Assembly (NCBI GenBank): GCA_021108075.1
Contig: JAIORP010000135.1
Location: 23,938-87,937 of the forward strand
Direction of reading: 5' to 3'
DNA: 64,000 nucleotides
From: Candidatus Omnitrophota bacterium
GTDB lineage: Bacteria > Omnitrophota > Gorgyraeia > Zapsychrales > Zapsychraceae
The notes under the pieces are model-generated. The model was not told the origin of the DNA. It worked only from the letters and a program-made list of their open reading frames with translations, and did not search any database. Position 1 is the stretch's first letter, and every line of letters starts with the position of its first letter. Below are positions 2,539-48,502 of the stretch, one piece after another. The position numbers and the translations under genes are program-made.

Positions 2539-2916
2539 ATGAAAAAAATTCTGGTCATTGATGATGATTTAACCGACTTAAGAATTATCGATAAAAATAT
2601 TTCCTCCCATAATTATGAAGTCATCACAGCCGCTACTCCTCAAGATGGCCTGAATAAAGCAAAAGAAATAAAACCTGATCTCATTATTCTGGATATTATC
2701 ATGCCGGATATCGATGGTGCGGAGGTTTATAGTCTGCTGAAAAAAGAACCTGAAACACACAATATCCCTGTCATTTTTTTGACAGCAGCTTTAGATAAAG
2801 AGAAAAATGAACAAGTATTAGGGCCCGACATAGAGGAAGACTTTTTTAATATCATTGCCAAACCATTCAACGAAAAAGAAGTGATTGATCGCATTAAAAG
2901 CATTATTGGCGAATAA
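2539..2916 (+). CDS. single-domain response regulator (CheY-like receiver)
   Basis: MKKILVIDDD...PDLIILDIIMPDIDG...FLTA...KPF: canonical REC acidic pocket, phospho-Asp, Thr and Lys positions. Confidence 0.85.
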   Translation: MKKILVIDDDLTDLRIIDKNISSHNYEVITAATPQDGLNKAKEIKPDLIILDIIMPDIDGAEVYSLLKKEPETHNIPVIFLTAALDKEKNEQVLGPDIEEDFFNIIAKPFNEKEVIDRIKSIIGE

Positions 2917-3194
2917 ATCTTTCTTTAAACCCACAATACGCACTTAAAACACCCATCTACACACGAAATAAGTGCAGCATGAACACCCGTTGGTTCGCAA
3001 ATCCTGTTGTAGCGCCCGTTTCAAATCTAAAACGCAACACAACTATCTATTTTGCTCCTTGTCATGTCATTATTCCGCCTGATGACTTGATCATCTGAAA
3101 AAAATAATTTAAAACAAACCTTTTCATTGTAAAAAAAATAATGATAATAATAAATAGAAGCCACAGGGATAGCAAAACAGGGATAGACATTATA

Positions 3195-3277
3195 ATACCA
3201 AATCCATTAATAAATTGTTCTATCTTAATTCTGAAAAGCAGAATTGGTTTTGGTCATTATTTAATGGAATTGGTATA
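3195..3277. repeat. copy 1 of an ~82-nt imperfect-palindromic intergenic repeat family (ATACCAAATCCATTAATAAATTG...CATTATTTAATGGAATTGGTAT)
   Basis: Near-identical sequence recurs at 15955-16036 (same orientation) and, as reverse complement, at 18669-18750 and 48421-48502. The two arms are mutually complementary, with AATTCTG-AAAAG-CAGAATT at the centre. Confidence 0.85.
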
Positions 3278-3345
3278 ACGACACAAAAATGACAGATTAA
3301 CGCATGATCAAATTGTCGTTGATGACCATTTAAAATCATTAAGAA

Positions 3346-4110
3346 ATGAATATCTTTAAACGACCAATAAAAAAATTACTCAATTATATCAAAGTGATAA
3401 AATCAACGTTAATGACAAAAATCATTACGATGACCACTGTCTTAATTCTTTTAATTGCCCTTGAGCACCTTTTTTTTGTGCTCCACATGAAAAAAGAATT
3501 ACTACTCTTTCATGCTCATTCAAGCCATTCTTTTGTTGAACTTGTCAAAAAAGAATTATTAACAGTCGCCTTACCTGGTCAGGACCCGACAAAGAATGTC
3601 AGTGATCTTGAGCACAAAATTCATCAATATCACAAAGAACAATGCACCGAATACGAACGCCATGTGAATGAATCAATCCGCACTAATATTTTCCGAGATT
3701 TAGTCATCCTCATTATTTTTATGAGCATCCTCTTATCTTTAACTTATCACGCGTTAAAGCCTATCAACACCCTGACTAAAGCGATTTCTGAAATTAACAC
3801 CGGAAACTTTGATTATGATTGGAGCATCCAGACGACAGATGAGCTTGCATTTATGAGTGAATCCATAAACATAATGAGACGAAACCTCAAACGCATAGCG
3901 TTATCAAGGCAGGAACTAAACAAAGAAATTGCTGAACGAAAAAAAATAGAGCAGATATTAATCGAAGAAAAACACAACTTAGAAGTTTTTCAAAAAGCGG
4001 CAGTCGACCAAGAAATGCACATTATCAAACTTAAAAAGACGATAAACAACTTTATGACCAAAAAAGGACTCACACCCAAATATCGGATGAGTGAAAATAT
4101 TGAATTATGA
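3346..4110 (+). CDS. membrane protein with two TM segments, HAMP-like linker and coiled coil (sensor input module)
   Basis: Hydrophobic segments IITMTTVLILLIALEHLFFVL and LVILIIFMSILLSLTY, followed by a HAMP-like region (PINTLTKAISEINTGNFDYDWSIQTTDELAFMSESINIMRRNL) and a heptad-rich tail. Same frame as the downstream kinase gene but separated by stops. Confidence 0.6.
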   Translation: MNIFKRPIKKLLNYIKVIKSTLMTKIITMTTVLILLIALEHLFFVLHMKKELLLFHAHSSHSFVELVKKELLTVALPGQDPTKNVSDLEHKIHQYHKEQCTEYERHVNESIRTNIFRDLVILIIFMSILLSLTYHALKPINTLTKAISEINTGNFDYDWSIQTTDELAFMSESINIMRRNLKRIALSRQELNKEIAERKKIEQILIEEKHNLEVFQKAAVDQEMHIIKLKKTINNFMTKKGLTPKYRMSENIEL

Positions 4111-4173
4111 CCTTCAATGTTAAATCTCTCATAAAATATCATTCCGGATCACATTAATAAAGCACCAATCTTT

Positions 4174-6690
4174 ATGTCTAATAACGCGCGATATGAAATC
4201 GACACGATCATCCAAACGGCAATAGACGGGTTTTGGATAAACGATTTGGATGGAAACTTCAAAAAAGTCAACAACAAGTTCTGTGAGATGATCGGTTATG
4301 CTGAGGAAGAACTATTATTAATGTCTCTGGCAGACATTGAAGCGGTCGAAAAGCCTTCAGAAACAAAGGAACATATTCAAAAAATTATGAGCAATGGCTC
4401 AGACCAATATGAATCATGTTTAAAATGCAAAAACGGACAAATTATTGATGTTGAAATTAAAATCTCACATTTAGAACCCGATAATATCCAAATTGCGTTT
4501 GCCAAAGATATTACAGAAAAAAACATAGCCAACAAATCAATCAAAGAAAGCGAAGCATTATTTAGCGCGCTTTATGAACATTCGAGCGATTCGATTATGT
4601 TGTTGGATAACCGCGGTTTTTTTGACTGTAATCCGGCGGCATTACATACTTTTGGTTACCCGGCTAAAAAAGCATTCTGCCAACTGCACCCTAAAGATTT
4701 ATCTCCTCCAAAGCAACCGAATGGAAAAAATTCAATGAACCAAATGAATAACTATATCGGTGAGGCCATCAAACACTCAATTTGCCGATATGAATGGACA
4801 TTTAAAAAAAAGGATGAATCTGTTTTTCCGGCTGAGGTTATCCTCAACACGATCGAGATGCATGGAAAAATCATTATTCAAAATGTCGTTCGAAATATTG
4901 CAAATCGAAAAAAGGCTGAAGATGACCTCATCACCGCTAAAACTCAAGCAGAAAAAAACGAAATTAAGGCGTATAAAGCCCTCGTCGAAGTCGAAAGGAC
5001 CCAAAAGGCCAATATCAGCATGATGGAGAACGCGATCCTGGCTAAAGAAAAATTAGAACATCAATCTCATCAATTGAAAAAAGCGCGATTAAAAGCTGAA
5101 CAAGCCTCAAAAGCAAAGAGTGATTTCCTTTCAAACATGAGCCATGAGATTAGAACCCCCATGAACACAATTTTAGGTTTCAGCAAGCTTTTAAAACGCT
5201 CTGAATTAACGTCAAAACAATCTCATTATTTAAACCTCGTATTATCCAGTGGGGATTATCTGCTTGAACTGATTAATAACATCTTAGACCTGTCCAAGTC
5301 AGAAGCTGAACGAACCCAACTTGAACAGATCGATTTTAATATTGAAAAACTTGCTGATAATGTTCTTAAAATCGGGCAATCAAAAATCGACAAAAAAAAT
5401 ATTGAATTTTATCTCTACATTCACCCGGATGTTCCGGAAGAATTAAATGGAGACCCAACACGCCTGCGACAAATGTTGATCAATTTGATTGGTAATGCCA
5501 TCAAATTCACGGATCAAGGGCACGTTGGGCTGATCATCCAAAAAGAAACAGTAAATAAAGTCAATGTCCCTGACTGGACAGAAAATGAAGACCAATGTTT
5601 CTTACGATTTTGTGTTGAAGACTCAGGAATCGGTGTGCCAAAAGAAAAAAACGAATTCATATTTGATGTCTTTTCTCAAGCAGACACATCAACCACAAGA
5701 CAATACGGAGGAACAGGATTAGGTCTTGCCATATGTAAAAATTACGCCCAATTGATGAAAGGAAAAATATGGGTCGAATCCGAAGGAAACAACGGCAGTA
5801 AGTTTATCTTTAACGCCCTCTTATTTAAATCCAAAAAGCGGGTCCAAAAAGCACTGCCGGAAGCCTTCAGGGACCTAATAACAAGCAAAACAATCCATAT
5901 CATTGATGATAACTTTACGATCAGTCAGCATTTAAAACATATCTGTACAGACATTGGGTTCAAAAACATCAAATGTGACAACACTCCCGAATATTTATAT
6001 GAAACAAAAAACGCCAATGACAATATCCCGGATATCATATTGATAGATATTCTTCTTGAGAACGATAAATCTTTTCAATTGGTCCATCAGGCCTCAAAGC
6101 AAGACCATCTGAAATCCATAAAAATAATTGGAATGACATCCAGCATGGACGATCTTGAGCCTGAAAACATAAAAAAAGAAGGTTTTTTAGGACTCCTAAC
6201 GAAACCTGTAACAAAAAATGATTTGTTACACATTTTGGCTAGCAATTATGATTTTAAAGACATATTCAGTGCTGATGAGCTTCAGCAAGAAAAAAATGAG
6301 ATGACATGCAAAGGACTTAAAATCCTTGTCGTCGATGACAATATTCCCAATCAAGCCCTGATCAAATCCTATTTCCGCGTTCTCGGCTGCATCGGAGATT
6401 ATGCCGGCAATGGCCAAGAGGCTGTTGAAAAAATAAAAAAAAACAACTATGACGTTTGCTTAATGGACTTACAAATGCCGGTAATGGGGGGGCAGGAAGC
6501 GACCACAATAATCAGAAAAGGCATTAACAAAAATATTCCCATACTAGCCCTTACGGCTGACGTCGTACAGGAAGATAAAGAAAAAGCGCTCGCGACAGGA
6601 ATGAACGATTATTTAACGAAACCCATCACCTTATCCCGACTAAAAGAAAAAATCCTTAAATACAGTCAAAAAAAAATCGACTCAAAATAA
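4174..6690 (+). CDS. hybrid sensor histidine kinase (PAS-PAS-HisKA-HATPase_c-pseudoREC-REC)
   Basis: PAS-like N-terminal repeats; H-box SHEIRTPMNTILGF; N, G1 and G2 boxes (IGNAIKFT, DSGIGV, GGTGLGLAI); C-terminal receiver KILVVDDN...VCLMDLQMPVMGG...LALTA...KP. Confidence 0.85.
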   Translation: MSNNARYEIDTIIQTAIDGFWINDLDGNFKKVNNKFCEMIGYAEEELLLMSLADIEAVEKPSETKEHIQKIMSNGSDQYESCLKCKNGQIIDVEIKISHLEPDNIQIAFAKDITEKNIANKSIKESEALFSALYEHSSDSIMLLDNRGFFDCNPAALHTFGYPAKKAFCQLHPKDLSPPKQPNGKNSMNQMNNYIGEAIKHSICRYEWTFKKKDESVFPAEVILNTIEMHGKIIIQNVVRNIANRKKAEDDLITAKTQAEKNEIKAYKALVEVERTQKANISMMENAILAKEKLEHQSHQLKKARLKAEQASKAKSDFLSNMSHEIRTPMNTILGFSKLLKRSELTSKQSHYLNLVLSSGDYLLELINNILDLSKSEAERTQLEQIDFNIEKLADNVLKIGQSKIDKKNIEFYLYIHPDVPEELNGDPTRLRQMLINLIGNAIKFTDQGHVGLIIQKETVNKVNVPDWTENEDQCFLRFCVEDSGIGVPKEKNEFIFDVFSQADTSTTRQYGGTGLGLAICKNYAQLMKGKIWVESEGNNGSKFIFNALLFKSKKRVQKALPEAFRDLITSKTIHIIDDNFTISQHLKHICTDIGFKNIKCDNTPEYLYETKNANDNIPDIILIDILLENDKSFQLVHQASKQDHLKSIKIIGMTSSMDDLEPENIKKEGFLGLLTKPVTKNDLLHILASNYDFKDIFSADELQQEKNEMTCKGLKILVVDDNIPNQALIKSYFRVLGCIGDYAGNGQEAVEKIKKNNYDVCLMDLQMPVMGGQEATTIIRKGINKNIPILALTADVVQEDKEKALATGMNDYLTKPITLSRLKEKILKYSQKKIDSK

Positions 6691-6738
6691 ATCATATTCC
6701 TATTCATTAAAAATCTAATCAATGCTAATATATCGACA

Positions 6739-7074
6739 GTGGAAAAATTAGATATTAATTTTCTTAATTGCGCCAATCAACTTGGTCTTAGCTTGGAAGA
6801 CTATAAAGAATTATTAACGATATCACTCGCGGATGCCAATCAAGATATCATGCGGTTGGAAACAATTATTGAAAATAAACAAGAAGATCAATATTTTCAA
6901 GTCATCCATCATCTCAAGGGTACTCTTTGTTCACTGATGATTAAAAGCGTGACAGATACGATTTCGACAATGAATGATCTTGCCCAAAAAAAACAAAATT
7001 TAAACCAAATTCCAAAATTATATTCCGTCCTTAAACAAAGGATAAATCAACTCAATATCAATTTAAATGAATAA
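6739..7074 (+). CDS. histidine phosphotransfer (Hpt) domain protein
   Basis: Hpt signature HHLKGTLCSLMI (HxxKG); small all-helical protein between the kinase and receiver genes. The start is a GTG with no RBS, so the true start is uncertain. Confidence 0.6.
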   Translation: MEKLDINFLNCANQLGLSLEDYKELLTISLADANQDIMRLETIIENKQEDQYFQVIHHLKGTLCSLMIKSVTDTISTMNDLAQKKQNLNQIPKLYSVLKQRINQLNINLNE

Positions 7075-7104
7075 TTTAATATTTTCAGAAGGAGGATGTG
7101 CGTG

Positions 7105-7497
7105 ATGTGGAAAATTTTAGTTGTTGATGATAATGAAAGAAATGTCGAACTTATCGTTGAGACACTCGAAGGCATTGCTAAATGCCAAACAGCTAAAAAT
7201 GGAGAAGAAGCTCTGACCGCTTATAATACCGCCATTACAGGCCAAAACGCTTTTGATGTTGCCTTATTGGATGTCGCCATGCCTGGTATTGATGGAATAG
7301 ATGTATTGAAGGCCATTCGAGCGAAGGAGGAAGAGCGGGGGATCCCATTTGGTGAAGGCATGCCGATTATTATGGTCACGGCAAACAAAGAACCGTTTAT
7401 CAAGGCCTATCGTACCGGTTGTGACGACTACATCTTAAAGCCAATCGATCCAGAGAAACTCATCACAATGATTGAAGAAAAGCTTTCTAACAAATAG
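7105..7497 (+). CDS. single-domain response regulator (CheY-like)
   Basis: MWKILVVDDNERN...LLDVAMPGIDG...IIMVTA...LKP; GGAGG RBS 9 nt upstream of ATG 7105 (the track ORF starts at 7096). Confidence 0.85.
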   Translation: MWKILVVDDNERNVELIVETLEGIAKCQTAKNGEEALTAYNTAITGQNAFDVALLDVAMPGIDGIDVLKAIRAKEEERGIPFGEGMPIIMVTANKEPFIKAYRTGCDDYILKPIDPEKLITMIEEKLSNK

Positions 7498-7550
7498 TAT
7501 TTGCCTTCGAGGTACGATGTTATTATACACCCGGTTTTCCATAAAGACAT

Positions 7551-10500
7551 ATGTCTAAGAGCAAAATCACATTACCCCAAACTGTTTATGTCGATAAAGA
7601 TAAATGCATTAACTGTCATGCCTGTATTTCCGCCTGTCCTGTAAAATATTGCAATGATGGAAGTGGTACGGTTGTCAGTATCAACTCCGATCTCTGCATT
7701 GCCTGCGGAAAATGTATCCAAACCTGCTCTCATCAGGCCCGTTTTTATACCGACGATTTGCCGGCCCTCCAACGGGCCATTCACCGACAAGAAAGAATCA
7801 TTGCTGTCGTCGATCCGTCTATCGCTGCAAATTTCCAACATCAATTCTTAAACTTAAATGGATGGTTAAAAAGTTTCGGTGTTCATGCCGTTTTTGATAT
7901 CAGTTTTGGTGCTGAACTATGTGTCAAAAGCTATGTCGAATATATTCAGAAACAATCACCTCCCATTATCATCATACAATCTTGCGCCGCTATCGTCAGT
8001 TATATCGAAATGTATCAGCCGGAACTGCTACCTTATCTAGCGCCTATTGACAGCCCGATGATACATACAATCAAGATGATACGAAAATACTATCCTCAAT
8101 ACTCCGACCACAAAATCGCGGTGCTTTCACCTTGTCTCGCAAAAAAGAGAGAACTTCATGAAACAAATATGGGAGACTTTTACATTGCCGATCTTTCCCT
8201 CAAGCAATATATCAAAGACAACAATGTTGAACTATCCAGCTTTCCTGCCATTGATTATGATGATCCATCGGACGAAAGGGCTGTCGTTTTTCCATCTCCA
8301 GGGGAATTACTTCGTACCTTAAAACGTTGGATTCCGAATATGAGCTATCTGGCCCGCGAGATTGAAGGAACAGAAACGATCTATGATTATCTAAAAAAAC
8401 TTCCGGCTATTTTAAACAAGGAAAAAATCAACACACCGCTTTTGATTGATTGTTTAAATTGTGAACTAGAATGTACCGGAGAACCCCTCACCTTAAACAA
8501 AAATAAATCTGTTGAAAAAATTGAATATTGGATGCAACAAAAAAACAAAGCCATGCAAATAATACATCGACAGGATCAATCAAATCAAGACATAAACATC
8601 AATGACATCGTATCAAAACATTGGTGTGAACAGCTATATCACAGGAGTTATCTTGATCTATCAGATTCCGTGCAGATTAAAAACCCCACGCTAGCAGAAC
8701 TGCAGGCAATTTTTGAAACCATGCATAAGTATTCAGAAAAGGATATCATCAATTGCAGCTCTTGCGGTTATGGCAAGTGCGAAAACATGGCAAAAGCCAT
8801 CTATAACAAGCTGAATCGGCCTGAAAATTGTCATCATTATCTCGCCCAAAAATCTGATATCAGGAAGAATAAAATTCAGTTAAACGAAAAACGTTTGAAA
8901 CACATCCTGGATACAACTCTCGAAGGTTTTGTCCAGGTCAATAAATCAGGATACATTCAAATGGCCAATGAAGCCATGGCGAATATATTGGGGGCCACAC
9001 CAGATAAAATCATCAATCATCCGATATCGAAGTTTATTTCGCCGCTTCAAGACATCGACTTTGGGAACATTATAAACCTCAAAAATCTTACGAAACATAA
9101 ACTCGAAGTTACGCTTTCCAAATTAGATGGATCGACAATATACAGTTTATTCCACATAAATATTTTGACAGATGAAAACAACCAACCTATTGGCTATTTT
9201 GCTTTGGTCAGTGATATTACAAATCTTAAAAACACGGAAAAAGAATTAAAAAAATTCCAGGATCATTTGCAGCAGCTCGTTGAAGAACGAACGCAGGAAT
9301 TACAAAAAATAAATTTCCAGCTTGAAGAAGAAGTTACTCAGCGAAGAAAAGAGCAAAATAAAATTCAAGAAAGTGAACAGGAAATCCGCCGAATTATGAA
9401 TACGATTCCTCATGCGGTCCTAGAATTAAAAAATCGTCAAATCGTCTTTGCCAACGCTGCCGTTGTCGGCGTATTTGGCTGGCAAGCCAATGAACTCATT
9501 GGAAAAACGACACAAATTCTGTATTTGGATGATAACGAATTCGATAAAATCGGTCAATATTTTTATCCCGTACTAGCCAAACAGGGGATTCATCATGGTG
9601 AATTCAATATAAAGAAAAAAAACGGACGCAATATTATTTGTATGATCAGTGCATCGTTCGTAGGCAAAGAAACGGATAACGAGAGAGTGATCGCTGTTTA
9701 TGAAGACATAACAGAACGCAAACGGGCAGAAACAGCCCTCCATCTGGCTAAAGAGGCGGCAGAAGAAGCCAATCGCTTGAAATCTCAATTTGTTTCAAAT
9801 GTGTCACATGAAATCAGAACACCCCTCAATTGCATTATTGGTTTTGCTGATGTCATCTTGCAATCCGAAGACCTAAACAGCATCCACCAACAGGCTGAAA
9901 TCATATTAAATGAATCTGAGACACTCCTCAATCTCATTAACGACCTTTTAGATCATGCTAAAATTGAGGCTGGTAAATTGAATATCGATCAACATGGTTT
10001 CGACCTCTATGGCCTTATCAATCAAATTGTGCAAACCATGCGGATCCATGCCAATAAAAAAAATTTGCAATTTTATGCTTCCATTGAGAAAACTGTTCCT
10101 CAATATGTGATTGGTGACAGTTTGCGAATCCATCAAATCATTATAAACCTACTCAGTAATGCCCTAAAATTCACCCATGTAGGATCCATCACATTACTCA
10201 TTGAATCCTTTGATAAAAAAAAGGATCAAGTCACTCTTCGCTTTTCCATTATTGATACAGGAATAGGAATATCCAGAGAACAACAAAACAAAATATTTGA
10301 AAGTTTTACGCAAGCGGATGGAAGCACAACCAGAAAATATGGGGGAACAGGACTAGGTACAACCATTGCCAAAGATCTTGTACAGATTATGCACGGACAA
10401 ATGGGGGTCTCAAGTGAACAAGGTAAAGGAAGCACTTTTTGGTTCTCCTTACAGTTTGAACGATGCACAGACCTAAGCAAGGTTAAAAAATTTCATCAAA

Positions 10501-11312
10501 AGAAACAAAAACAGTTGGGAGACAACAGGATAAAAAAAAATACTCAATTTAATATTCTGGTTGCTGAAGACTACACACCCAATCAAGAATTAATAAAACT
10601 CCTCCTAAGTAGCGCAGGTTTTCAGTTCTCTATCGTCTCGAACGGCCTTGAAGTGATTGATATCTGCCGCCAGTCAACTTTCGATATCATCTTGATGGAC
10701 GTTCAAATGCCGGAATTAGACGGCATCGCCACCGCCTTGCATATCCGAAATAATATGGAGGCATTAAAAACGATCCCCATCATTGCCCTAACCGCCCACG
10801 CCAACAAGGCAATTGTCGAAAAATGTTTTAAAGCAGGGATGAATGATATTCTAAATAAACCAATTAGGAAGGAAGAACTGCTGCAGGTCCTGGATAAATA
10901 TCTGAAGAACAAACCTGGCCAAGCAACGAATAACGGTCAAAATACGGCTTTTGACAGAGATACTATGCCGCTGCATTATAATGAAATCATAAAAGAATTT
11001 GGTGGTAATAAAATTTTGCTGGATACCGTCACGAATCAATTCATCACCAATGTTGGCGGCCAAATTCTGATTATGCAGGACGCGATCAAAAATAAACAAT
11101 TTGAGATACTTAGAAAGGAAATACATAAAATTAGGGGCGGCGCAGCCAACCTAACAGCCCAATCTTTGGCTGATATTGCCGAAGAAATTGAATCTTTAGC
11201 AAAACAAAAAAATTATATAAACCTCAATAATCTCATGAAAAACTTCGTATCTGAATATAAGCGCCTAAAAGAATATGTAGGGAGTGGATATAAAAATATT
11301 GGCAAAAACTAA
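7551..11312 (+). CDS. multidomain hybrid histidine kinase with N-terminal 2x[4Fe-4S] ferredoxin and [FeFe]-hydrogenase H-domain-like (HydS-like sensory) module, then PAS-PAS-HisKA-HATPase_c-REC-Hpt
   Basis: Ferredoxin motifs CINCHACISACP and CIACGKCIQTCS. H-domain-like region: FDISFGAE, SPCLAKKRE (cf. MPCxxKKxE), degenerate L1 QSCAAIV (cf. TSCCPxW), L3-like IDCLNCELECTGEP. Cx2Cx4Cx16C motif: CSSCGYGKCENMAKAIYNKLNRPENC. H-box SHEIRTPLNCIIGF; ATP-lid GGTGLGTTI. Receiver ILVAEDYTPN...ILMDVQMPELDG...ALTA...KP. C-terminal Hpt HKIRGGAANL. Confidence 0.85.
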   Translation: MSKSKITLPQTVYVDKDKCINCHACISACPVKYCNDGSGTVVSINSDLCIACGKCIQTCSHQARFYTDDLPALQRAIHRQERIIAVVDPSIAANFQHQFLNLNGWLKSFGVHAVFDISFGAELCVKSYVEYIQKQSPPIIIIQSCAAIVSYIEMYQPELLPYLAPIDSPMIHTIKMIRKYYPQYSDHKIAVLSPCLAKKRELHETNMGDFYIADLSLKQYIKDNNVELSSFPAIDYDDPSDERAVVFPSPGELLRTLKRWIPNMSYLAREIEGTETIYDYLKKLPAILNKEKINTPLLIDCLNCELECTGEPLTLNKNKSVEKIEYWMQQKNKAMQIIHRQDQSNQDININDIVSKHWCEQLYHRSYLDLSDSVQIKNPTLAELQAIFETMHKYSEKDIINCSSCGYGKCENMAKAIYNKLNRPENCHHYLAQKSDIRKNKIQLNEKRLKHILDTTLEGFVQVNKSGYIQMANEAMANILGATPDKIINHPISKFISPLQDIDFGNIINLKNLTKHKLEVTLSKLDGSTIYSLFHINILTDENNQPIGYFALVSDITNLKNTEKELKKFQDHLQQLVEERTQELQKINFQLEEEVTQRRKEQNKIQESEQEIRRIMNTIPHAVLELKNRQIVFANAAVVGVFGWQANELIGKTTQILYLDDNEFDKIGQYFYPVLAKQGIHHGEFNIKKKNGRNIICMISASFVGKETDNERVIAVYEDITERKRAETALHLAKEAAEEANRLKSQFVSNVSHEIRTPLNCIIGFADVILQSEDLNSIHQQAEIILNESETLLNLINDLLDHAKIEAGKLNIDQHGFDLYGLINQIVQTMRIHANKKNLQFYASIEKTVPQYVIGDSLRIHQIIINLLSNALKFTHVGSITLLIESFDKKKDQVTLRFSIIDTGIGISREQQNKIFESFTQADGSTTRKYGGTGLGTTIAKDLVQIMHGQMGVSSEQGKGSTFWFSLQFERCTDLSKVKKFHQKKQKQLGDNRIKKNTQFNILVAEDYTPNQELIKLLLSSAGFQFSIVSNGLEVIDICRQSTFDIILMDVQMPELDGIATALHIRNNMEALKTIPIIALTAHANKAIVEKCFKAGMNDILNKPIRKEELLQVLDKYLKNKPGQATNNGQNTAFDRDTMPLHYNEIIKEFGGNKILLDTVTNQFITNVGGQILIMQDAIKNKQFEILRKEIHKIRGGAANLTAQSLADIAEEIESLAKQKNYINLNNLMKNFVSEYKRLKEYVGSGYKNIGKN

Positions 11313-11358
11313 AAATATAGTATATAAATGTAATATATCTAAAAAAGGAGTTCTTCCT

Positions 11359-11760
11359 ATGCGTATTTTAATCGTTGATGATGATTATGTCAGCCGAACC
11401 AAGTTGAAAGCGTTATTGTCGATGTACGGGGACTGTGACACAGTTCCAAATGGAGAACTTGCTTTAGAATTTTTTAATAATGCTCATTCTGAAAGCGTAC
11501 CTTATGATCTTATAACTTTGGACATAGATATGCCGGGCATGAATGGTCATGAAGTGATTGACAAAATGTCAGAATGGGAAATGGCAAATGAGATTGATGC
11601 CACAAAATCAGCTAAGCTACTGATGATAACTATCAAACAGAACTCGGAAGACATTATGTCTTCTTTTAGAAAGGGGTGTCACGATTATATAAAAAAACCC
11701 GTAACACAATCCAATATTCAAGTTGCCCTTGAAAATATTGGGCTTATGAAGAACCTTTAG
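11359..11760 (+). CDS. single-domain response regulator
   Basis: AAAAAAGGAG RBS then ATG 11359; MRILIVDDDYVSR...LITLDIDMPGMNG...LMIT...KKP. Confidence 0.8.
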   Translation: MRILIVDDDYVSRTKLKALLSMYGDCDTVPNGELALEFFNNAHSESVPYDLITLDIDMPGMNGHEVIDKMSEWEMANEIDATKSAKLLMITIKQNSEDIMSSFRKGCHDYIKKPVTQSNIQVALENIGLMKNL

Positions 11761-12651: not shown

Positions 12652-12740
12652 TTCAGATGACTATTGTGACGAACCACAACGATACCATCAACATCAAATT
12701 TCCTTTAATTACATTATATGAACATTGGGAAAGCAACTGT

Positions 12741-12803
12741 TTGAATTTAAGGTGCTTGCTGCGGAGTCAAAAACAATGCCCCGTGCAAGCACCTTAAATT
12801 CAA
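12741..12803. promoter_or_regulatory. 19-bp perfect inverted repeat (TTGAATTTAAGGTGCTTGC / GCAAGCACCTTAAATTCAA) with 25-nt spacer; strong stem-loop
   Basis: Read directly: positions 12741-12759 are the exact reverse complement of 12785-12803. GCGG/CCGT in the loop can extend the stem. About 90 nt downstream of the 11803-12651 gene; no U-tract follows. Confidence 0.6.
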
Positions 12804-13218
12804 CAACGGCAAACACTTTTGATCCATCCAGAAAGACATTCTCGGTCAAAAAAACCATTCATGGCCAGTCATTCCAATACATCCCTATCCGAAACATATC
12901 AAACCAAATCCTGGCCCGGCTGTCATAAATGCACTTATCAAATGCATTATCGTGACAACAACTTATTGTCTTAAACCTCTATATTTCAATCAGTTTCAAC
13001 CTTAAAATAAAGTACTAGATTTTTTTTTCATTTTGTAGTATATTTATGTCTATCGAATGTTGTCCGCATTTACTGCATAAAATATGATTATTGGAGGTGA
13101 TTGCACGTGGGGGAATGGAAAGAAGATAAATTAATCAAGTCTACAAATAAAGACAGAGATATTTTCCCTTGGGACGAAGCGGATATATACTTTTAGGATG
13201 TTATCGCAACAAACAGTC

Positions 13219-13260
13219 AAAACCCTATCTTGCATTGTGACAAGATAGGGTTTTCTGTTT
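13219..13260 (+). terminator. rho-independent terminator-like hairpin
   Basis: AAAACCCTATCTTG-cattgtga-CAAGATAGGGTTTT (14-bp stem, 8-nt loop) followed by CTGTTT; directly downstream of a 29-codon ORF at 13105-13194. Confidence 0.6.
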
Positions 13261-13823
13261 AAATGGCCTTGCGATATACAGCACATGAACAAAAACATAT
13301 TAATTTTTTTAATTCACAACCAGCCATTATTATCTCAACAATGAGATCATACGGGTACGATTTAAAAAACGTTACTATCAGGCCATCAGGAAAAATTTTC
13401 ATCTTTGTTTTTTTACAGGCCAAACGTACTAAAATTTAATAATAAATCCTCAAATCAGTGTAACCGTTGTTAACTTTGAGCAATTTACCGGCTACACCAT
13501 CCAAGGCAAAACACACATCATCCCCAAAAATAAAAGGATCTGTTCCATATTGACAAATGGGAAAATAAAATTACCCAACCCATTTCAGAACCTTTAGTAC
13601 AAAATGTTCAAAAAGAAACGAAAGGCTCCTTTAATTACGAAACTCACCTGCCATAAAATCCTAAATACATGATTGAAGTATCTGTTTCCAGCAAAAATTT
13701 ATCCCCCATATTGCCACAAGATTAAATCCTCTGAATCAAATAGTCATTATGGTTGCAAAATAAAAATAATACGATATAATTTTAAATATCAAAATTTTCA
13801 TTTATAAACCATCAGGAGCAAAT

Positions 13824-15350
13824 ATGAACAAAGAAGATTTTTTAGCCATCCTGCATAAAGGAACTGAATTAGAGGCATCCGATGTTCATCTTTCCGCAAA
13901 CAAACCACCGATTTTTCGTCTTTATGGCAATTTACAATACTCGAAGCAGGCATCCATATCAAATTCACAGTTAAAGAGTATGCTCTATGATTTATTATTA
14001 CCTGAACAAATTGCTAAATTCGAAGAAGAAAAAGAGCTTGATTTTTCTTATAGAGAAATGGCGGAATATCAATTTCGAATCAACGCCGGACTTGATCGTG
14101 GAAATATTGCAATCACAGCACGCATCACTCCCGCAAAAATAAAGTCTTTGGAAGAATTAAATCTTCCAAAAGTTGTTCAGGACATCGCTTATGAACGAAA
14201 AGGGCTGGTTCTGATTGCCGGGGTAGCAGGATGCGGAAAGAGTACAACATTAACATATCTTATCGATTTGATTAATCGCAATAGACAGTGTAAAATTGTT
14301 ACCATTGAAGACCCGATCGAATATATCCACGAATCAAATAAGTCTTTAATTATGCAAAGAGAAGTCGGCGCGGATACCCATACTTTTGCGGATGCCATCA
14401 AACACGCCCTCCGCCAGGACCCGGATGTTATCGTCATTGGAGAAATGCGTGACTTGGAATCGATGTCCATGGCAATTACAGCTGCAGAAACAGGCCACCT
14501 CGTATTAACAACTGTTCACGCTCCGAATGCGACCGAAACCATCAACCGTATCATTGATGTTTTTCCCCAGGCAAATCGTGACCAAATCAATATTCAGTTA
14601 GCTGAGAACTTCTTAGCTGTTATGGCACAAATGCTCATTCCCCGTGCAGACAGCAAAGAACGCATACTGGCCACAGAGGTTATTTATACAAACATTGCTA
14701 TCCGCAACCTGCTCCGGAGAGGATCACTCGTCGAACTTCGTGGACAAATTGACGCCGATGAAAATCCTAAAGTTCAATCATTTGAGGTTTGTCTTTCTAA
14801 ACTCTATCTCAAGAACCTCATCACGAAAGAGACAGCCATCGACTATTCAAAATTCCCGGAAAAACTAAAGTTCACAAATCCGAATGATTTTAAAAGTGTT
14901 TTTGGGACAAAAAAGAAAACTAAGGACAAAAAAAGTTCCAAATACGAGCCCGATGAAATGAATACGTTCGAAAAAGCCTTAATTATTGAACAAGACGAAG
15001 ACGATCGCGGTAAAATGGGAGAAATATGTAAACATGAAGGGATCCCGACGATTTATCTCGCTCCGTCCGGAGAGCAAGGACTCATCATTGCCAATAAAGT
15101 CAAGCCTGATTTAATCATTATTGACATGCTAATCGTTGATATTGATCTGGAAAAACTTTGTGAGCATTTCAAAGAAATCGTTGGAGACGGAATCAAAATT
15201 ATTATGATTACCGGAAGATTTAGGCCGGAAGACCCCCAAAAAGTATCCGATTTAGGTGCTATTGATTTGGTTGTCAAAACTGCTGATCTGCGGTTACTAT
15301 CTAAATCACTGCAAAAGCTTCAAGGAACATATAATCCCGAAAATAAATAA
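13824..15350 (+). CDS. PilT/PilU-family type IV pilus retraction ATPase fused to a C-terminal receiver (REC) domain
   Basis: PilT N-terminus (ASDVHLSANKPPIFRLYG), Walker A GVAGCGKSTTL, IVTIEDPIEY, Walker B/His-box IVIGEMRD...TGHLVLTTVHA. After ~aa 380 a receiver-like domain: ALIIEQDEDD / KPDLIIIDMLIVDID / IKIIMITG / DLVVKTAD (D, D, T, K positions present). Confidence 0.85.
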   Translation: MNKEDFLAILHKGTELEASDVHLSANKPPIFRLYGNLQYSKQASISNSQLKSMLYDLLLPEQIAKFEEEKELDFSYREMAEYQFRINAGLDRGNIAITARITPAKIKSLEELNLPKVVQDIAYERKGLVLIAGVAGCGKSTTLTYLIDLINRNRQCKIVTIEDPIEYIHESNKSLIMQREVGADTHTFADAIKHALRQDPDVIVIGEMRDLESMSMAITAAETGHLVLTTVHAPNATETINRIIDVFPQANRDQINIQLAENFLAVMAQMLIPRADSKERILATEVIYTNIAIRNLLRRGSLVELRGQIDADENPKVQSFEVCLSKLYLKNLITKETAIDYSKFPEKLKFTNPNDFKSVFGTKKKTKDKKSSKYEPDEMNTFEKALIIEQDEDDRGKMGEICKHEGIPTIYLAPSGEQGLIIANKVKPDLIIIDMLIVDIDLEKLCEHFKEIVGDGIKIIMITGRFRPEDPQKVSDLGAIDLVVKTADLRLLSKSLQKLQGTYNPENK

Positions 15351-15383: not shown

Positions 15384-15938
15384 TTATTTTTCTCCCATCA
15401 ATTTATTCAGTCGATCAAAAGCTCTACTCCGGGCATTTTTCTTTTTCTGTTCTAACTCATTCTTATCTTCGCGCAACTTATATATCAATGAAAGAGAAAA
15501 CACGATATCTTCAAAACAATAGTGAAATGAAATCCTGTGCGTATTCGAAAAGTCCGAAAGAATGACCATTCGGTTCCCTTTAATTGTTGTAGGGATACTG
15601 ATCTCAAAACTATGCTCCGTTTCTTTCATCAACTTCATCTTAACACCACCGGCAATCATATTAATCTGCTCAGCGATCCCGTCAATCACTTCACGATTAG
15701 CGTCATCCAGTGTTGAATGAATCATCCTGGATACGATTTGACAGGCACTGCTGTTAGGTAAGCAAATCGCAATACTCCCTTCAATACTGCCGATAAAACC
15801 GATCGAACTGATAATGCATTCGTCGTCTAACATAACCTCATTTTCAATCTGCTTTGGGACTAACGATATCGTCGCAAGAAACGCGTCGGAAACAGACTCC
15901 TCCAATAACTTGCTTAAATGCTCTGATAATTCATTCAT
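15384..15938 (-). CDS. CheX/CheC-like chemotaxis phosphatase family protein
   Basis: 184 aa; segment DDANREVIDGIAEQINMIAGGVK resembles the CheX active-site region (E...N...G); low-complexity C-terminal tail. Confidence 0.55.
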   Translation of the reverse strand: MNELSEHLSKLLEESVSDAFLATISLVPKQIENEVMLDDECIISSIGFIGSIEGSIAICLPNSSACQIVSRMIHSTLDDANREVIDGIAEQINMIAGGVKMKLMKETEHSFEISIPTTIKGNRMVILSDFSNTHRISFHYCFEDIVFSLSLIYKLREDKNELEQKKKNARSRAFDRLNKLMGEK

Positions 15939-15954
15939 ATCTCATCTCCAAATT

Positions 15955-16036
15955 ATACCAAATCCATTAATAAATTGTTCTATCTTAATTCTGAAAAGCA
16001 GAATTGGTTTTGGTCATTATTTAATGGAATTGGTAT
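15955..16036. repeat. copy 2 of the ~82-nt palindromic repeat family
   Basis: Identical to 3195-3277 over about 82 nt; lies in the divergent region between the CheX-like gene and the first PEP-CTERM gene. Confidence 0.85.
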
Positions 16037-16321
16037 TAGTATCAAATTCAACCATTTTAAAACAATATAATTTATTGCTGATAGCATGTACAGCAAAAAC
16101 TCATCTTTTTAACAAAAATAATAAAAGTTCGGTCATGCTTATATATATAAAATTATACACTCAACTCATTAGTTGTTGCTTTTTTTGAACATTCAAATAT
16201 AATAGTAATACGAACAATAAGAAAAATAAGAAAATATGAGCCAATATAAGCCAAATAGAGATAATTAAACGTAGCATGGCACATTTATTGCTTATATATA
16301 TCAACGAGAGGAGTATACACT

Positions 16322-16705
16322 ATGAAAAAAATGTTTTTAATCATTATTTTATTAATGACTTGCATTTCCCTTCAAGGATGCAAAGGCGGCGGAAGTGGAT
16401 CAGGAAGTGGGATAACATCCGGCGGTGTTTTTCTAGATCCCATGGCTTTACTGAATGAAGACGGAACTGGCGATGATCCATTACCATGGACAACTGACGA
16501 ACCAGATGAAGAAAGCGAGGATAATTCCGGAGGAGAAGATCCAGACCCGATAGTATTGCCTGACTTATGTGAAGATAGCGAACATAATGTTGTTCCTTGT
16601 ATTGAAGGACCGGGAACTGAAGCACACTCAACACCAGAGCCTGCGACATTTTTCTTGTTGTTCAATAGCCTGTTAGGATTTGCTTTTTTTAAAAGAAAAA
16701 AATAG
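16322..16705 (+). CDS. PEP-CTERM sorting-domain lipoprotein (Gly/Ser-rich, acidic)
   Basis: GAGGAG RBS; lipobox-like LQGC after the signal peptide; C-terminus STPEPATFFLLFNSLLGFAFFKRKK is a PEP motif plus TM helix plus basic tail. Confidence 0.75.
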   Translation: MKKMFLIIILLMTCISLQGCKGGGSGSGSGITSGGVFLDPMALLNEDGTGDDPLPWTTDEPDEESEDNSGGEDPDPIVLPDLCEDSEHNVVPCIEGPGTEAHSTPEPATFFLLFNSLLGFAFFKRKK

Positions 16706-16767: not shown

Positions 16768-17529
16768 TTGAAAACTAAAATATGTACATTGACTACTCTA
16801 ATTTTGTTGAGTACAACCGTCTATTCCTATGCCTTTTATAACATTGATGGAGATTTAAATGACTGGGGAATAGACCTCACCGATCCTCAAGCTCAAAACA
16901 AACACTATCTAGACAATCACACGCCCATAGGGTCAAACATTGATTTCTTCACAGAAGACAATACTGACAAATTCCAGGGCAGTCAATACGTTGGCCCCGG
17001 ATATTCAAACGGGAACCGGTACGACGCTGAGGCCATCTATTTTGACAATGACGCTCAATATGCCTATATCGCGATCGTAACAGGTGTATCTTCCTCAGAA
17101 AATTCTTTCCCCGCAGGCGATATTTTCCTTGATTCAATCGACCCAACAGGCAATCAACAATACCATTATGGCATCGATATCATCACTGGAGAGTTCTATT
17201 TCGTTGATAGTTGGATTGATGTTGATTATTCTGATCATCAAAGCGCCTCACCATGGAAAATCGGAGATAATAAAACACTTCTGGGACAAGCAGATTTATT
17301 TTATACAACCCAGGACATTAATTCACACTATGTCATCGAGGCCAGGGTTCCTTTAGCCTGGATGGGGATAGGAACATCGTCAAGCACAGACATTTGGCTC
17401 CACTGGACAATGCGCTGTGGCAATGATACCGTCGATCTGAAAGGGACGGTTCATTCTACCCCCGAACCAGCGACATTTTTTCTTCTTCTGAACGGATTCT
17501 GGGGCTTCTTTTTCCTCCGAAAAAAATAA
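16768..17529 (+). CDS. PEP-CTERM sorting-domain secreted protein
   Basis: TTG start 9 nt after AAAGGAG; signal peptide; C-terminus STPEPATFFLLLNGFWGFFFLRKK. Confidence 0.75.
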   Translation: MKTKICTLTTLILLSTTVYSYAFYNIDGDLNDWGIDLTDPQAQNKHYLDNHTPIGSNIDFFTEDNTDKFQGSQYVGPGYSNGNRYDAEAIYFDNDAQYAYIAIVTGVSSSENSFPAGDIFLDSIDPTGNQQYHYGIDIITGEFYFVDSWIDVDYSDHQSASPWKIGDNKTLLGQADLFYTTQDINSHYVIEARVPLAWMGIGTSSSTDIWLHWTMRCGNDTVDLKGTVHSTPEPATFFLLLNGFWGFFFLRKK

Positions 17530-18336: not shown

Positions 18337-18668
18337 ACTCGTTTCGGTTGATATTTTTTTTTGAAAAAGCTAGATATCCTTTCCGATTAATATTACCATA
18401 AAAACAATTTAAACTTACGGTAAACATATGAACAGTCTGAAGGGATGCTCACCCACAACATTTGACAATATCTCTAAATCTTCAACCCCATCCCAAAGAA
18501 GGCGGGTTCTTTATTGAAACCTGCCGATCAGATGAATCTCTACAGGGAAACCTGCTTCACAAAAAATAAACAAAAAAAGAGGCCTGAAGTCAATCCTCTG
18601 ACGAACTTTTAATAATATTCTTGATTTAAAAACGGGAACGAAGTAGAATATACCGCATTAAGATAATA

Positions 18669-18750
18669 ATACCAATTCCATTAAATAATGACCAAACCCA
18701 ATTCTGCTTTTCAGAATTAAAATAGAACAATTTATTAATGGATTTGGTAT
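18669..18750. repeat. copy 3 (inverted orientation) of the ~82-nt palindromic repeat family
   Basis: Reverse complement matches copies 1 and 2 with two substitutions in the internal region; immediately upstream of the PilZ gene. Confidence 0.85.
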
Positions 18751-18765
18751 AAAGGAATAGCAACG

Positions 18766-19146
18766 ATGAAAAAAATGAAAGAAAAAAGAAAATTTATTCG
18801 AACTAAATGGAAATATCCCGTTGTTATCTTTGGACCAAACAATGAAATTCTCAACGGACAAATCAGCAATATTTCTCTAACAGGAGCCTACATTACCCGT
18901 GTTTTCCCTTGCATACTCCGCGTGGGCGATATATTCAGTTTTAATATCATCCTTTCCGATATTGACCTCGACCTCCGTATCGAAGGTGATGCTATCGTCC
19001 TTCGACAAGAATCAACCATCGGAATAGGAGTCAAATTCACAAAATTCAACGCAGACGCGCTCATGCACCTTCGCAAAATTGTTACGTACAATCATGAGGA
19101 CACAGAAAGCACACCCGGTAAACCTAAAATCTTTTCAGACAATTAA
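18766..19146 (+). CDS. PilZ domain protein (putative c-di-GMP receptor)
   Basis: RKFIRTKWK (RxxxR) and NISLTGAYI (D/NxSxxG) motifs, about 20 aa apart. Confidence 0.7.
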   Translation: MKKMKEKRKFIRTKWKYPVVIFGPNNEILNGQISNISLTGAYITRVFPCILRVGDIFSFNIILSDIDLDLRIEGDAIVLRQESTIGIGVKFTKFNADALMHLRKIVTYNHEDTESTPGKPKIFSDN

Positions 19147-38769: not shown

Positions 38770-39966
38770 ATGGTTGATCAATTCGCAATCCAATATCAGA
38801 GTCCTTTACGTGTCCTTGTCGTTGAAGACAATCCCGTTGATCTAACAGTCATCAAATCCATGTTAACGGGAACAACCGACAATTACACATTCCTGAAGAC
38901 AGCGTCCACGATCAAAACCGCACTTGAAATTATTGAAGAGTACCCTATCGATGTTGTCATCCTCGATCTCAACCTTCCGGATAGTCAAGGAGAAAAAACA
39001 CTGCAAACCGTTCATAACCGCTTCAATGACCTGACCATTGTTGTCAACACCGGGGCTTACGAGGAAGAACTCGGTTTGCACACATTGAGCAACGGGGCGC
39101 AAGATTTTCTTGTCAAAGGAAGGTATACCGCTTACACCCTGAACAAAGTCCTCCATTTTGCCATAAAACGCAAAAAACTTGAGACAGAACTGACCAGGAC
39201 CGTACAACAAGTCAAAGATGCCCAAGAACAACTCCTTCAAGCAGAAAAAATGAATGTGGTCGGCATACTCGCTAGTGGAATAGCCCATGAAGTACGAAAC
39301 CCATTAGCAACGATCTTATATGGGATCACCTACCTTCATGAAAATATCCGGGTCGAAGATAAAAATTATCACCATGTCCTGAAGAATATTAAAGAAGCGA
39401 CAAAACGGGCCAATGATATTATTTCTGACTTGCTTGATTTCTCAAAATTTAAAAAACTGCAACTCGATGAGACAAATATACATCACGTTATTAAAAAAGC
39501 GTTATCATTGATCCAATATGAAATTGATAAAAAAACTCTTCAAATCGTCAATGACTTCCAAAACAGCATCCCACCTATTAAAATTGATCAAAACCGCATT
39601 GAACAGGTTATCGTCAACCTTTTGCTCAATGCCATTCATGCGACGGAAGAGGGCAAAATTTCGATCAGGACTTACACACGCACACTATCAAATGATTTAA
39701 CGGAAATACCTCAAATATCCAGAAAAAATTTCACCCCAGGACAACAAGCTCTGTTTTGCTCGATAGATGATTCCGGCAGCGGGATTCCAGCAGAAGACAT
39801 CGATCAGGTTTTCTATCCGTTTTTCACTTCCCGCCGAGCTAAAGGCGGAATTGGTCTAGGGCTATACGTCGCTCGAAACATTATTGATATTCACAAAGGT
39901 GCCTTAATCTTAAAAAATAACGAGGATAAGGGAGCCCAAGCCATAGTTGTATTACCATATCGTTAA
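38770..39966 (+). CDS. receiver-histidine kinase (N-terminal REC, then HisKA-HATPase_c)
   Basis: LRVLVVEDNPVDL...VILDLNLPDSQG; H-box GIAHEVRNPLATI; G-boxes DDSGSGIP, GGIGLGLYVARNII. Confidence 0.8.
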   Translation: MVDQFAIQYQSPLRVLVVEDNPVDLTVIKSMLTGTTDNYTFLKTASTIKTALEIIEEYPIDVVILDLNLPDSQGEKTLQTVHNRFNDLTIVVNTGAYEEELGLHTLSNGAQDFLVKGRYTAYTLNKVLHFAIKRKKLETELTRTVQQVKDAQEQLLQAEKMNVVGILASGIAHEVRNPLATILYGITYLHENIRVEDKNYHHVLKNIKEATKRANDIISDLLDFSKFKKLQLDETNIHHVIKKALSLIQYEIDKKTLQIVNDFQNSIPPIKIDQNRIEQVIVNLLLNAIHATEEGKISIRTYTRTLSNDLTEIPQISRKNFTPGQQALFCSIDDSGSGIPAEDIDQVFYPFFTSRRAKGGIGLGLYVARNIIDIHKGALILKNNEDKGAQAIVVLPYR

Positions 39967-39984
39967 TCTAAGGGAGTTTAAGTC

Positions 39985-40368
39985 ATGAAAAAAAAAATTT
40001 TATTAATTGATGATGAAGCGGCTTTTACTTCAATGTTGAAACTATTCTTAGAATCAACGGGTGAATATAATGTGGCGGTTGAAAACAATCCACACAGAGC
40101 TGTTAATGCGGCAGAAATACATACACCTCATCTCATTTTACTAGATGTCATTATGCCGGAGCTTGAAGGATCGGATGTTGCGGATCGCATACGTCAACAT
40201 CCAAACCTGAATAAAACACCAATTATCTTTTTAACAGCAACGATACGGGAGGATGAAATGCAAGAATCGCAGGGAGTTATCGCCGACCAACAATTTATTG
40301 CCAAATTAAGCAATACAGACTTTCTCATTGATTCCATAGAAAAAAAAATCGCCTTAACACATTCATGA
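39985..40368 (+). CDS. single-domain response regulator
   Basis: KKILLIDDEAAF...LILLDVIMPELEGSDV...FLTA. Confidence 0.8.
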   Translation: MKKKILLIDDEAAFTSMLKLFLESTGEYNVAVENNPHRAVNAAEIHTPHLILLDVIMPELEGSDVADRIRQHPNLNKTPIIFLTATIREDEMQESQGVIADQQFIAKLSNTDFLIDSIEKKIALTHS

Positions 40369-48391: not shown

Positions 48392-48420
48392 TAGTATGAT
48401 TATACAAAACTCAATAGATA

Positions 48421-48502
48421 ATACCAATTCCATTAAATAATGACCGGAACCAATTCTGCTTTTCAGAATTAAGATAGAACAATTTATTAATAGATTTGGT
48501 AT
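48421..48502. repeat. copy 4 (inverted orientation) of the ~82-nt palindromic repeat family
   Basis: Reverse complement matches copy 1 with substitutions (CCGG for TTTG in the internal loop, T for C once); lies between mutY and surE. Confidence 0.85.

Follow-up and report, generated by a model that had tools for sequence, protein, structure and literature searches.

The stretch of DNA analysed here, referred to throughout as the window, comprises 64,000 nucleotides from an uncultured Omnitrophota bacterium (JAIORP010000135.1, forward-strand positions 23,938 to 87,937), and harbors on its forward strand a gene, here termed the PilT-REC gene, whose product joins a PilT-family ATPase to a C-terminal CheY-like receiver (REC) domain. 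No stronger molecular motor than PilT is known in bacteria. The protein is 100% identical to an entry at NCBI (MCD4780839.1, from a metagenome-assembled genome of a Candidatus Omnitrophica bacterium) that carries only the name 'PilT/PilU family type 4a pilus ATPase', and the identical 508-residue product is recorded on three contigs. A preliminary description of the locus, made from the sequence, had placed the open reading frame exactly where it is found and had proposed a pilus retraction ATPase gated directly by phosphorylation; the fusion of the two domains is confirmed as genuine, and the features of the gene are as follows.

13753..13780, forward strand: promoter-like site TTGCAA-16-TATAAT, a consensus match only
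13814..13818, forward strand: Shine-Dalgarno sequence AGGAG, 5 nucleotides upstream of the ATG
13824..15350, forward strand: PilT-REC gene, a single open reading frame of 508 codons with an ATG start
13824..14138, forward strand: PilT N-terminal (PAS-like) domain, residues 1-105, assigned by family profile, model and structure comparison
14220..14246, forward strand: Walker A motif GVAGCGKST, residues 133-141
14304..14321, forward strand: Asp box IEDPIE, residues 161-166
14430..14453, forward strand: Walker B motif IVIGEMRD, residues 203-210
14496..14519, forward strand: His box HLVLTTVH, residues 225-232
14697..14720, forward strand: AIRNLIRE-type helix AIRNLLRR, residues 292-299, a signature of PilT as against PilU
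14871..14972, forward strand: flexible Lys-rich linker, residues 350-383, with 8 Lys in 34 residues
14973..15323, forward strand: receiver (CheY-like) domain of (beta-alpha)5 fold, residues 384-500 (117 residues)
14988..14993, forward strand: E389-Q390, at the canonical acidic-pair positions (CheY D12-D13), with the second acid missing
15123..15125, forward strand: D434, the Asp at the end of beta3 that is predicted to accept the phosphoryl group; 42 of 44 family members keep it
15210..15212, forward strand: T463, the conserved Thr/Ser position at the end of beta4 (Thr or Ser in 32 of 44, Ala in 11)
15276..15281, forward strand: K485-T486 at the end of beta5 (Lys in 38 of 44), with Thr where most receivers have Pro

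The identity of the ATPase portion was established by profile, structural and motif comparisons that agree with one another. The NCBIfam model TIGR01420 (pilT_fam) matches residues 7-345 across profile positions 3-341 of 343 with a score of 384.3 bits against a cutoff of 319.1, the Pfam T2SSE model matches with E = 6e-43, and the core is 40-42% identical to solved canonical PilTs, scoring 276 bits by sequence against G. metallireducens PilT4. An AlphaFold2 (AF2) model, built on 44 relatives as a monomer without inter-domain confidence, so that no docking geometry is claimed, displays a mean predicted local distance difference test score (pLDDT) of 87.5, with the PilT core at about 90; that core superposes on the chains of PilT4 with template-modelling (TM) scores of 0.88-0.92 and a root-mean-square deviation of about 2 Å over some 345 columns. 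Structure comparisons returned no solved structure that spans both a PilT core and a receiver. Each of the motifs quoted in the preliminary description for a PilT/PilU core is present where it had been placed, the key residues of the Walker A, Walker B, Asp-box and His-box motifs are invariant in the 44 relatives, and within the AIRNLIRE-type helix N295 is invariant across the family, with L296, I297 and R299 nearly so. Judged from these comparisons, the ATPase is predicted to have a full catalytic apparatus and resembles PilT in all respects open to comparison, and it is this that leads us to infer, by homology, a hexameric retraction motor.

The remainder of the protein consists of a tether and a second complete domain. 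The Lys-rich linker noted in the preliminary description was found to be disordered in the AF2 model between residues 355 and 378 (pLDDT < 50), and across the family it varies in length from 12 to 40 residues without conservation of its sequence, a behavior that fits a flexible tether. Beyond it, the Pfam Response_reg model (PF00072) matches residues 386-496, aligned to positions 2-110 of the 111 in the profile, with 44.1 bits, above its gathering threshold (GA) of 30.2, so that both of the domain models named beforehand as a check on the architecture are matched. The structure prediction that had likewise been suggested for the C-terminal region yielded five strands alternating with five helices over residues 384-500, at pLDDT values of 91-97, which corresponds to the (beta-alpha)5 fold of a receiver. 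A domain that failed to score as a receiver, or that lacked the conserved Asp, would have spoken against the original proposal; the domain scores above its threshold and D434 is present.

The possibility that a faulty assembly, a frameshift or an error of gene calling had joined a PilT gene to a separate response-regulator gene deserves mention in view of the metagenome-assembled source and of four close relatives (350-369 residues) that possess no receiver. The same single open frame, however, recurs in no fewer than 44 independent clusters that derive from many samples and assemblers, three contigs carry the identical protein, the linker is in frame without a stop, and the ATPase cores of the fused proteins are monophyletic. 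The recurrence of an intact frame across independent assemblies excludes an assembly artefact, and we regard the likelihood of any such explanation as negligible.

The distribution and ancestry of the architecture were assessed from the best 120 matches of a search of 5.8 billion proteins. About 45 clusters (at least 44) of 480-520 residues among these matches contain both T2SSE and Response_reg, a precomputed PF00072 match being present in 43 of 44 relatives, and every such cluster that bears a source name derives from Omnitrophica/Omnitrophota. In a neighbour-joining tree of 131 ATPase cores, with a sampled set of outgroups, the cores of the fusion proteins formed one clade in all of 30 bootstrap replicates; that clade excludes 77 canonical PilTs of many phyla, including three Omnitrophota PilTs of 348-349 residues, as well as each of the two halves of tandem PilTs. 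With members of the clade the query core shares 50-57% identity, as against 41-43% with canonical Omnitrophota PilTs. Thus the same fusion, for which the preliminary description had recommended a search among relatives, is shared by at least 44 clusters whose cores have a common origin. The four receiver-less proteins of 350-369 residues, one of them on a 400-kb contig, are nested within the clade and may be read as secondary losses of the receiver. Taken together, these data point to a single old fusion that was maintained with occasional loss of the receiver, and to a monophyletic two-domain architecture that is under selection, in a lineage-specific PilT paralog confined, as far as sampled, to Omnitrophota.

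Searches with narrower or broader queries were less informative for the extent of the family. When a receiver-only alignment was used for a profile search of the same 5.8-billion-protein set, scoring was confined to 1142 candidates with shared words, among which no member of the family appeared; the other receivers recovered were about 20-34% identical. The corresponding HMMER profile gave 638 matches at E <= 1e-30, a figure that counts unrelated multi-receiver proteins as well and is thus an upper bound, and its ranking sums all matched stretches, with the result that proteins containing three to six receivers fill the top 150 and a single recognisable member (P0047) appears there. A locus scan of species genomes with the full-length alignment showed one PilT-REC locus (L007) among the matches listed. 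Many matches of the family search were tandem PilT-PilT proteins of 710-770 residues that contain two complete PilT units (for example, P0013 and P0041); their sources are Lentisphaerota, Verrucomicrobiota and unclassified bacteria, and their annotation is simply PilT/PilU.

The residues upon which receiver chemistry depends were located by alignment with Spo0F, in which D54 corresponds to D434 (within DLIIID), T82 to T463 (IMITG) and K104 to K485 (VVKTAD), as the preliminary description had proposed. Its 'acidic pair EQDEDD' did not hold up in the same manner: the alignments with Spo0F and with the Pfam profile both place the D10-D11 pair of Spo0F at E389-Q390 (LIIEQ), a pair with one acid only. 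Asp occupies position 389 in 41 of the 44 relatives, and the combination of D/E389, D434, T/S463 and K485 is kept together in 28. The receivers of these 44 members are only 20-34% identical to that of the query, and the retention of the acceptor Asp and of the Lys across such divergence argues for selection on the phosphorylation site. Cys446 (15159..15161, in receiver helix 3) is kept in 43 of the 44 members at this same level of identity, a striking degree of retention; it aligns with a buried hydrophobic position in helix 3 of Spo0F and is probably a buried core residue, and, with nothing further to suggest redox chemistry, a role as a redox site was set aside.

These observations can be accommodated by a model in which an ancient gene fusion tethered a CheY-like receiver to the C-terminus of PilT through a flexible linker of 12-40 residues, such that PilT-REC would sit at the base of the pilus machine as a hexamer of the PilT type and its six tethered receivers would serve as a built-in switch of the motor. 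The state of the receivers would alter ATPase turnover, the conformation of the hexamer or its engagement with the pilus platform, and that state would most likely be set when D434 is phosphorylated, the donor being an unlinked ('orphan') histidine kinase or Hpt protein. With a receiver borne on a flexible C-terminal tether by each subunit, a switch acting in cis is the most economical role that can be proposed. Whether the protein is in fact a retraction motor whose receiver is a cis-acting switch thrown by phosphorylation of D434 appears to us an evenly balanced question. The broader claim, that a two-component signal reaches the PilT hexamer directly through six tethered receivers without a diffusible CheY-like intermediary, and thereby sets the timing of retraction in Omnitrophota, is put forward tentatively and with somewhat less than even confidence.

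Several observations weigh against this phosphorylation switch, and most of them concern the metal site. The two-acid Mg2+ site that normally follows beta1 is incomplete in the query (E389, Q390), and position 390 is acidic in only 4 of the 44 relatives and Arg in 16, the others having Asn, Thr, Gln and further residues. Mutants of CheY at D13, the equivalent residue, show that this position is normally required for phosphorylation dependent on Mg2+, which is blocked when Lys or Arg stands there. The usual K-P is replaced by K-T in the query, and the residue after the conserved Lys is Thr or Ser in 43 of the relatives; in one subclade Ala replaces the Thr, and the acceptor Asp has been lost from two members. 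Further points of the same kind are that no pilus genes lie in the window, so that PilT-REC is tied to a particular pilus machine by homology only, and that the loci of 11 relatives show no conserved kinase, Hpt or phosphatase gene next to PilT-REC. The missing second acid speaks for a chemistry that is either unusual or lost. If the built-in phospho-switch exists, the unusual active site (a single acid, often Arg in second place, and K-T) would signify an altered metal dependence or lifetime of the phosphoryl group. The proposal of a PilT motor gated by phosphorylation is therefore upheld as regards its two-domain architecture and weakened by the incomplete metal-binding pair and the change from K-P to K-T; the gating remains plausible on the evidence of the sequences compared.

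The same residues are the principal support for a different explanation, in which the domain would be a pseudo-receiver that retains the fold, is not phosphorylated and acts as a module for docking, localisation or oligomerisation in the manner of FrzS, FimX and TadZ/CpaE, with D434 and K485 playing structural roles. The acidic pair is incomplete in 40 of the 44 members, Arg occupies the D13-equivalent in 16, Thr has become Ala in 11, K-T stands for K-P, the acceptor Asp is lost in two, and the loci of relatives offer no conserved partner kinase nearby. The fused receiver also stands out from the four stand-alone receivers of the window, all of which have the canonical DD pair and three of which have K-P. 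Moreover, the FimX receiver, which possesses no acceptor Asp, is important for localisation (PMC11656802). Classical pseudo-receivers, however, usually lose exactly the acceptor Asp and the Lys, whereas these are kept in 42 and 38 of 44 members despite the low identity among the receivers; and the query has a strongly acidic beta1-alpha1 loop (E-Q-D-E-D-D), in which a cation could still be bound. A pseudo-receiver is thus a serious possibility, to which we nevertheless give clearly less than even credence.

The possible sources of a signal for the proposed phospho-switch, and the further elements surrounding the gene, are listed below.

2539..11760, forward strand: two-component cluster upstream of PilT-REC, comprising a receiver protein, a HAMP protein, a hybrid kinase, an Hpt protein, a receiver protein, a hybrid kinase and a receiver protein
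12652..13823: gap of 1.17 kb, poor in open reading frames, between the two-component cluster and PilT-REC
13219..13254, no strand assigned: perfect 15-bp hairpin followed by a T-rich tract, terminator-like
15384..15938, reverse strand: CheX-family phosphatase gene, convergent with PilT-REC across a 33-nucleotide gap
16322..16705 and 16768..17529, forward strand: two secreted PEP-CTERM-type proteins with a shared C-terminal HSTPEPATFFLL...(K/R) anchor
18766..19146, forward strand: PilZ-domain protein, 35.9 bits against 22.5, with the c-di-GMP-binding motifs RxxxR and NxSxxG

With its own promoter-like site, an upstream gap containing a terminator-like hairpin and a convergent downstream gene, PilT-REC looks monocistronic. 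In the gap, the hairpin directly follows a mini-ORF (13107..13196, 29 codons) with a GTG start and a GGAGGTG ribosome-binding site; Rfam gave no match anywhere in the window, this gap included. Domain models confirmed both the upstream Hpt gene, at 6739..7074, and the Hpt domain of a hybrid kinase. One hybrid histidine kinase of the cluster (7551..11312, forward strand, 1253 residues) begins with ferredoxin motifs of the 4Fe-4S type and the large-subunit domain of an [FeFe]-hydrogenase, followed by two PAS domains, HisKA/HATPase, a receiver and Hpt, and may represent a hydrogenase-like H2 or redox sensor that feeds a phosphorelay. No CheA, CheW or methyl-accepting chemotaxis protein (MCP) gene lies in the window.

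Of the neighbours to which the preliminary description had drawn attention, the CheX-like phosphatase on the opposite strand is real, scoring 63 bits against a threshold of 27 for Pfam PF13690 and displaying the intact catalytic motif D-x3-E-x2-N-x22-P (DGIAEQIN...P, residues 86-116). Its score against the Thermotogales CheX equivalog model, 48.6 against a cutoff of 280, is far too low for an ortholog, and it is therefore a member of the family only; being convergent with PilT-REC, it is not co-transcribed with it. The PilZ protein was likewise borne out, although it begins 3416 nucleotides after the PilT-REC gene rather than within the 3 kb that had been stated. The two PEP-CTERM proteins fall below the Pfam threshold (18.2 and 16.2 bits against 20.7) and yet are identical in their HSTPEPATFFLL...K/R anchor; within the window, no gene for an exosortase was seen.

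Two further sequence elements were recorded. A palindromic repeat of about 85 nucleotides is present in four near-identical copies (~3193..3278 and 15953..16043 on the reverse strand, 18662..18752 and ~48418..48504 on the forward strand), bears inverted sequences at its ends and the hairpin TTCTG-CTTTT-CAGAA at its center, adopts the fold of one long hairpin with z of about -5, and has no match in Rfam. Two of the copies constitute a 91-nucleotide, 97% inverted repeat that brackets the PEP-CTERM/MORN segment and ends 14-15 nucleotides ahead of the start codons of CheX and PilZ. The element could be of the miniature inverted-repeat transposable element (MITE) or repetitive extragenic palindromic (REP) type, or could be a shared leader or promoter; it was considered as a link that would tie CheX and PilZ to PilT-REC and was rejected, none of the four copies in the window lying upstream of PilT-REC. 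At the far end of the window, an open frame (50548..64000, forward strand) of at least 4484 codons occupies the last 13.5 kb and runs off the 3' end; with a strong A-over-T skew of 0.3-0.4 and only sub-threshold matches to coiled-coil-type Pfam families (Filament, ATG16), it has the look of one of the giant genes reported from Omnitrophota (PMC10066038).

Whether any of these neighbours is a conserved partner was assessed from the loci of 11 relatives (L001/L002, L003-L006 and L087-L092, the closest relative, P0022, included). In none of the 11 does a CheX, PilZ, Hpt-kinase or pilus gene directly adjoin PilT-REC. A functional link between CheX and the fused receiver is not borne out by this comparison or by the convergent arrangement of the two genes. 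The coupling of the upstream phosphorelay and CheX to the motor, as envisaged in the preliminary description, accordingly retains its components (the Hpt protein, the kinases and CheX are all real) and loses its genomic argument, in that the adjacency recurs in 0 of 11 relatives, a 1.17-kb gap with a terminator-like hairpin intervenes and CheX is convergent. In this genome the nearby phosphorelay would be a possible input, and CheX a possible reset, for the built-in switch; both are reasonable first candidates, for which proximity in one genome is the sole basis. Stand-alone receiver genes lie within about 2 kb upstream of PilT-REC in the window and in two of the relatives (L004 and L091), a weak trend.

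What does recur around PilT-REC is of a different character. In three relatives the next gene downstream is a cold-shock gene, and RNase_T, HIT and glycogen-metabolism genes lie near PilT-REC in several, the latter genes being found 8-23 kb downstream in the window. The window segment 29969..41026 corresponds to a string shared with L001, L003, L089 and L090 that comprises RNase_T, HIT, an outer-membrane beta-barrel, REC-HisKA-HATPase, REC and SET genes; it adjoins PilT-REC in some relatives and lies 14-25 kb away in the window, where CheX, PEP-CTERM, PilZ, ilvD and glycogen genes intervene. The RNase_T-HIT-porin-kinase-SET string stands beside PilT-REC in L001 and L003, whereas L092, a 3-kb contig, is too short to tell. 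The REC-HisKA-HATPase and REC pair of this string (38770..40368), whose kinase gene spans 38770..39966, was considered as a conserved partner kinase and rejected, the kinase being absent from six further relatives with enough flanking sequence; the association of PilT-REC with the string is read as backbone synteny, the shared genes being housekeeping genes.

This genomic setting bears upon a further explanation, according to which PilT-REC would no longer take part in retraction and would instead be a signalling-controlled hexameric ATPase, similar to PilT paralogs that have no retraction phenotype. The protein is a paralog distinct from the canonical 348-residue Omnitrophota PilT (41-43% identity, against 50-57% within the clade), and housekeeping rather than pilus genes surround it in every locus examined. 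Its TIGR01420 score nevertheless exceeds the equivalog-level cutoff for PilT/PilU, the AIRNLIRE-type helix is kept, and in one relative (L088) a PilB-like MshEN-T2SSE gene lies 7 kb away. The canonical Omnitrophota PilT is likewise solitary among metabolic and housekeeping genes, so that isolation of the gene is no argument against a function in pili. Nearly all Omnitrophota classes are reported to possess type-4a pilus genes (PMC10066038). We consider a departure from retraction unlikely. The canonical 348-residue pilT itself displays an odd, conserved placement in other Omnitrophota, between the genes for the large and small subunits of an aconitase-family (LeuC/LeuD-like) enzyme (L013 6702..10603; L016 6679..10584), after which an isopropylmalate/isocitrate dehydrogenase gene follows.

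Full-text literature searches (PilT, receiver/REC/CheY-like, fusion, Omnitrophota) returned no description of a PilT-receiver fusion, in agreement with the preliminary description, whose author was not aware of a characterised one, and the main Omnitrophota genomics paper mentions type-4a pili and neither PilT nor response regulators (PMC10066038). The pairing of T2SSE with Response_reg is visible in precomputed Pfam annotation, and is hence known to databases though apparently not to the literature searched. The significance of the architecture lies in a continuing debate over how PilT is switched: the regulators described (PilG/PilH, DrdR, PixG-type proteins and c-di-GMP effectors) exert their effects in trans, for the most part upon PilB, the extension motor, and all cases of receiver regulation of pilus motors that were found in the literature are in trans. 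A phylum-wide fusion of receiver and PilT argues that direct contact between the two is a workable regulatory design, and PilT-REC offers, in one polypeptide, a means of measuring the coupling of receiver and motor. While the neighbourhood link does not hold up, PilT-REC would still constitute a clean natural experiment on receiver control of PilT. It points to signal-controlled pilus retraction in the Omnitrophota, which are uncultured and thought to be attached to, or to prey on, other cells. If the built-in phospho-switch is correct, it would set the timing of retraction in ultra-small, probably host-attached cells, and would supply 'Rosetta-stone' evidence for direct-contact receiver regulation of PilT in other bacteria. 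Natural receivers that possess the acceptor Asp without the second metal-binding Asp are, in addition, useful for the question of what constitutes a minimal phosphorylation site.

Comparison with known systems places PilT-REC among several partial counterparts. The canonical PilTs of P. aeruginosa (3JVV), A. aeolicus (2EWV) and G. metallireducens (PilT4, 6OJX) share its N-terminal domain and RecA-like core, its boxes and its AIRNLIRE helix, but they end at about residue 345-370 without a regulatory domain, whereas PilT-REC adds a 34-residue linker and a 117-residue receiver and belongs to a separate, Omnitrophota-specific clade. The stand-alone receivers PilG and PilH of the Pil-Chp system, and the PixG/PATAN-REC proteins, similarly couple chemosensory or two-component input to extension and retraction motors through CheY-like domains; they are, however, encoded in chemosensory operons together with CheA-type kinases, in contrast to a receiver that is fused to its motor. 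In TadZ/CpaE a receiver-like domain is joined to an ATPase. This protein, FrzS and the FimX receiver illustrate the use of degenerate receiver folds for localisation or interaction in pilus systems, but they have lost the acceptor Asp or core residues, their receivers are N-terminal and none involves a PilT-type fusion, while PilT-REC mostly keeps the Asp, Thr and Lys.

A functional counterpart in regulatory logic is DrdR of Xanthomonas campestris, an orphan response regulator with tandem REC domains that binds both PilT and PilB and raises the ATPase activity of PilT about 4.8-fold (PMC13507683). Its action upon PilT is an experimental precedent for a direct effect of a receiver on this motor, which is the logic proposed for PilT-REC; it differs in being a separate protein that acts in trans through a canonical pocket (Asp148, Asp198, Thr231 and Lys253), where PilT-REC would rely upon a single tethered receiver with an incomplete metal pair. 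A final parallel is provided by PilB and MshE with an N-terminal, c-di-GMP-binding MshEN domain, in which a motor ATPase of the same superfamily carries a signal-receiving domain in cis. There the motor is one of extension, the domain is N-terminal and of another fold, and the ligand is c-di-GMP, whereas in PilT-REC the corresponding elements would be retraction, a C-terminal receiver and a phosphoryl group.

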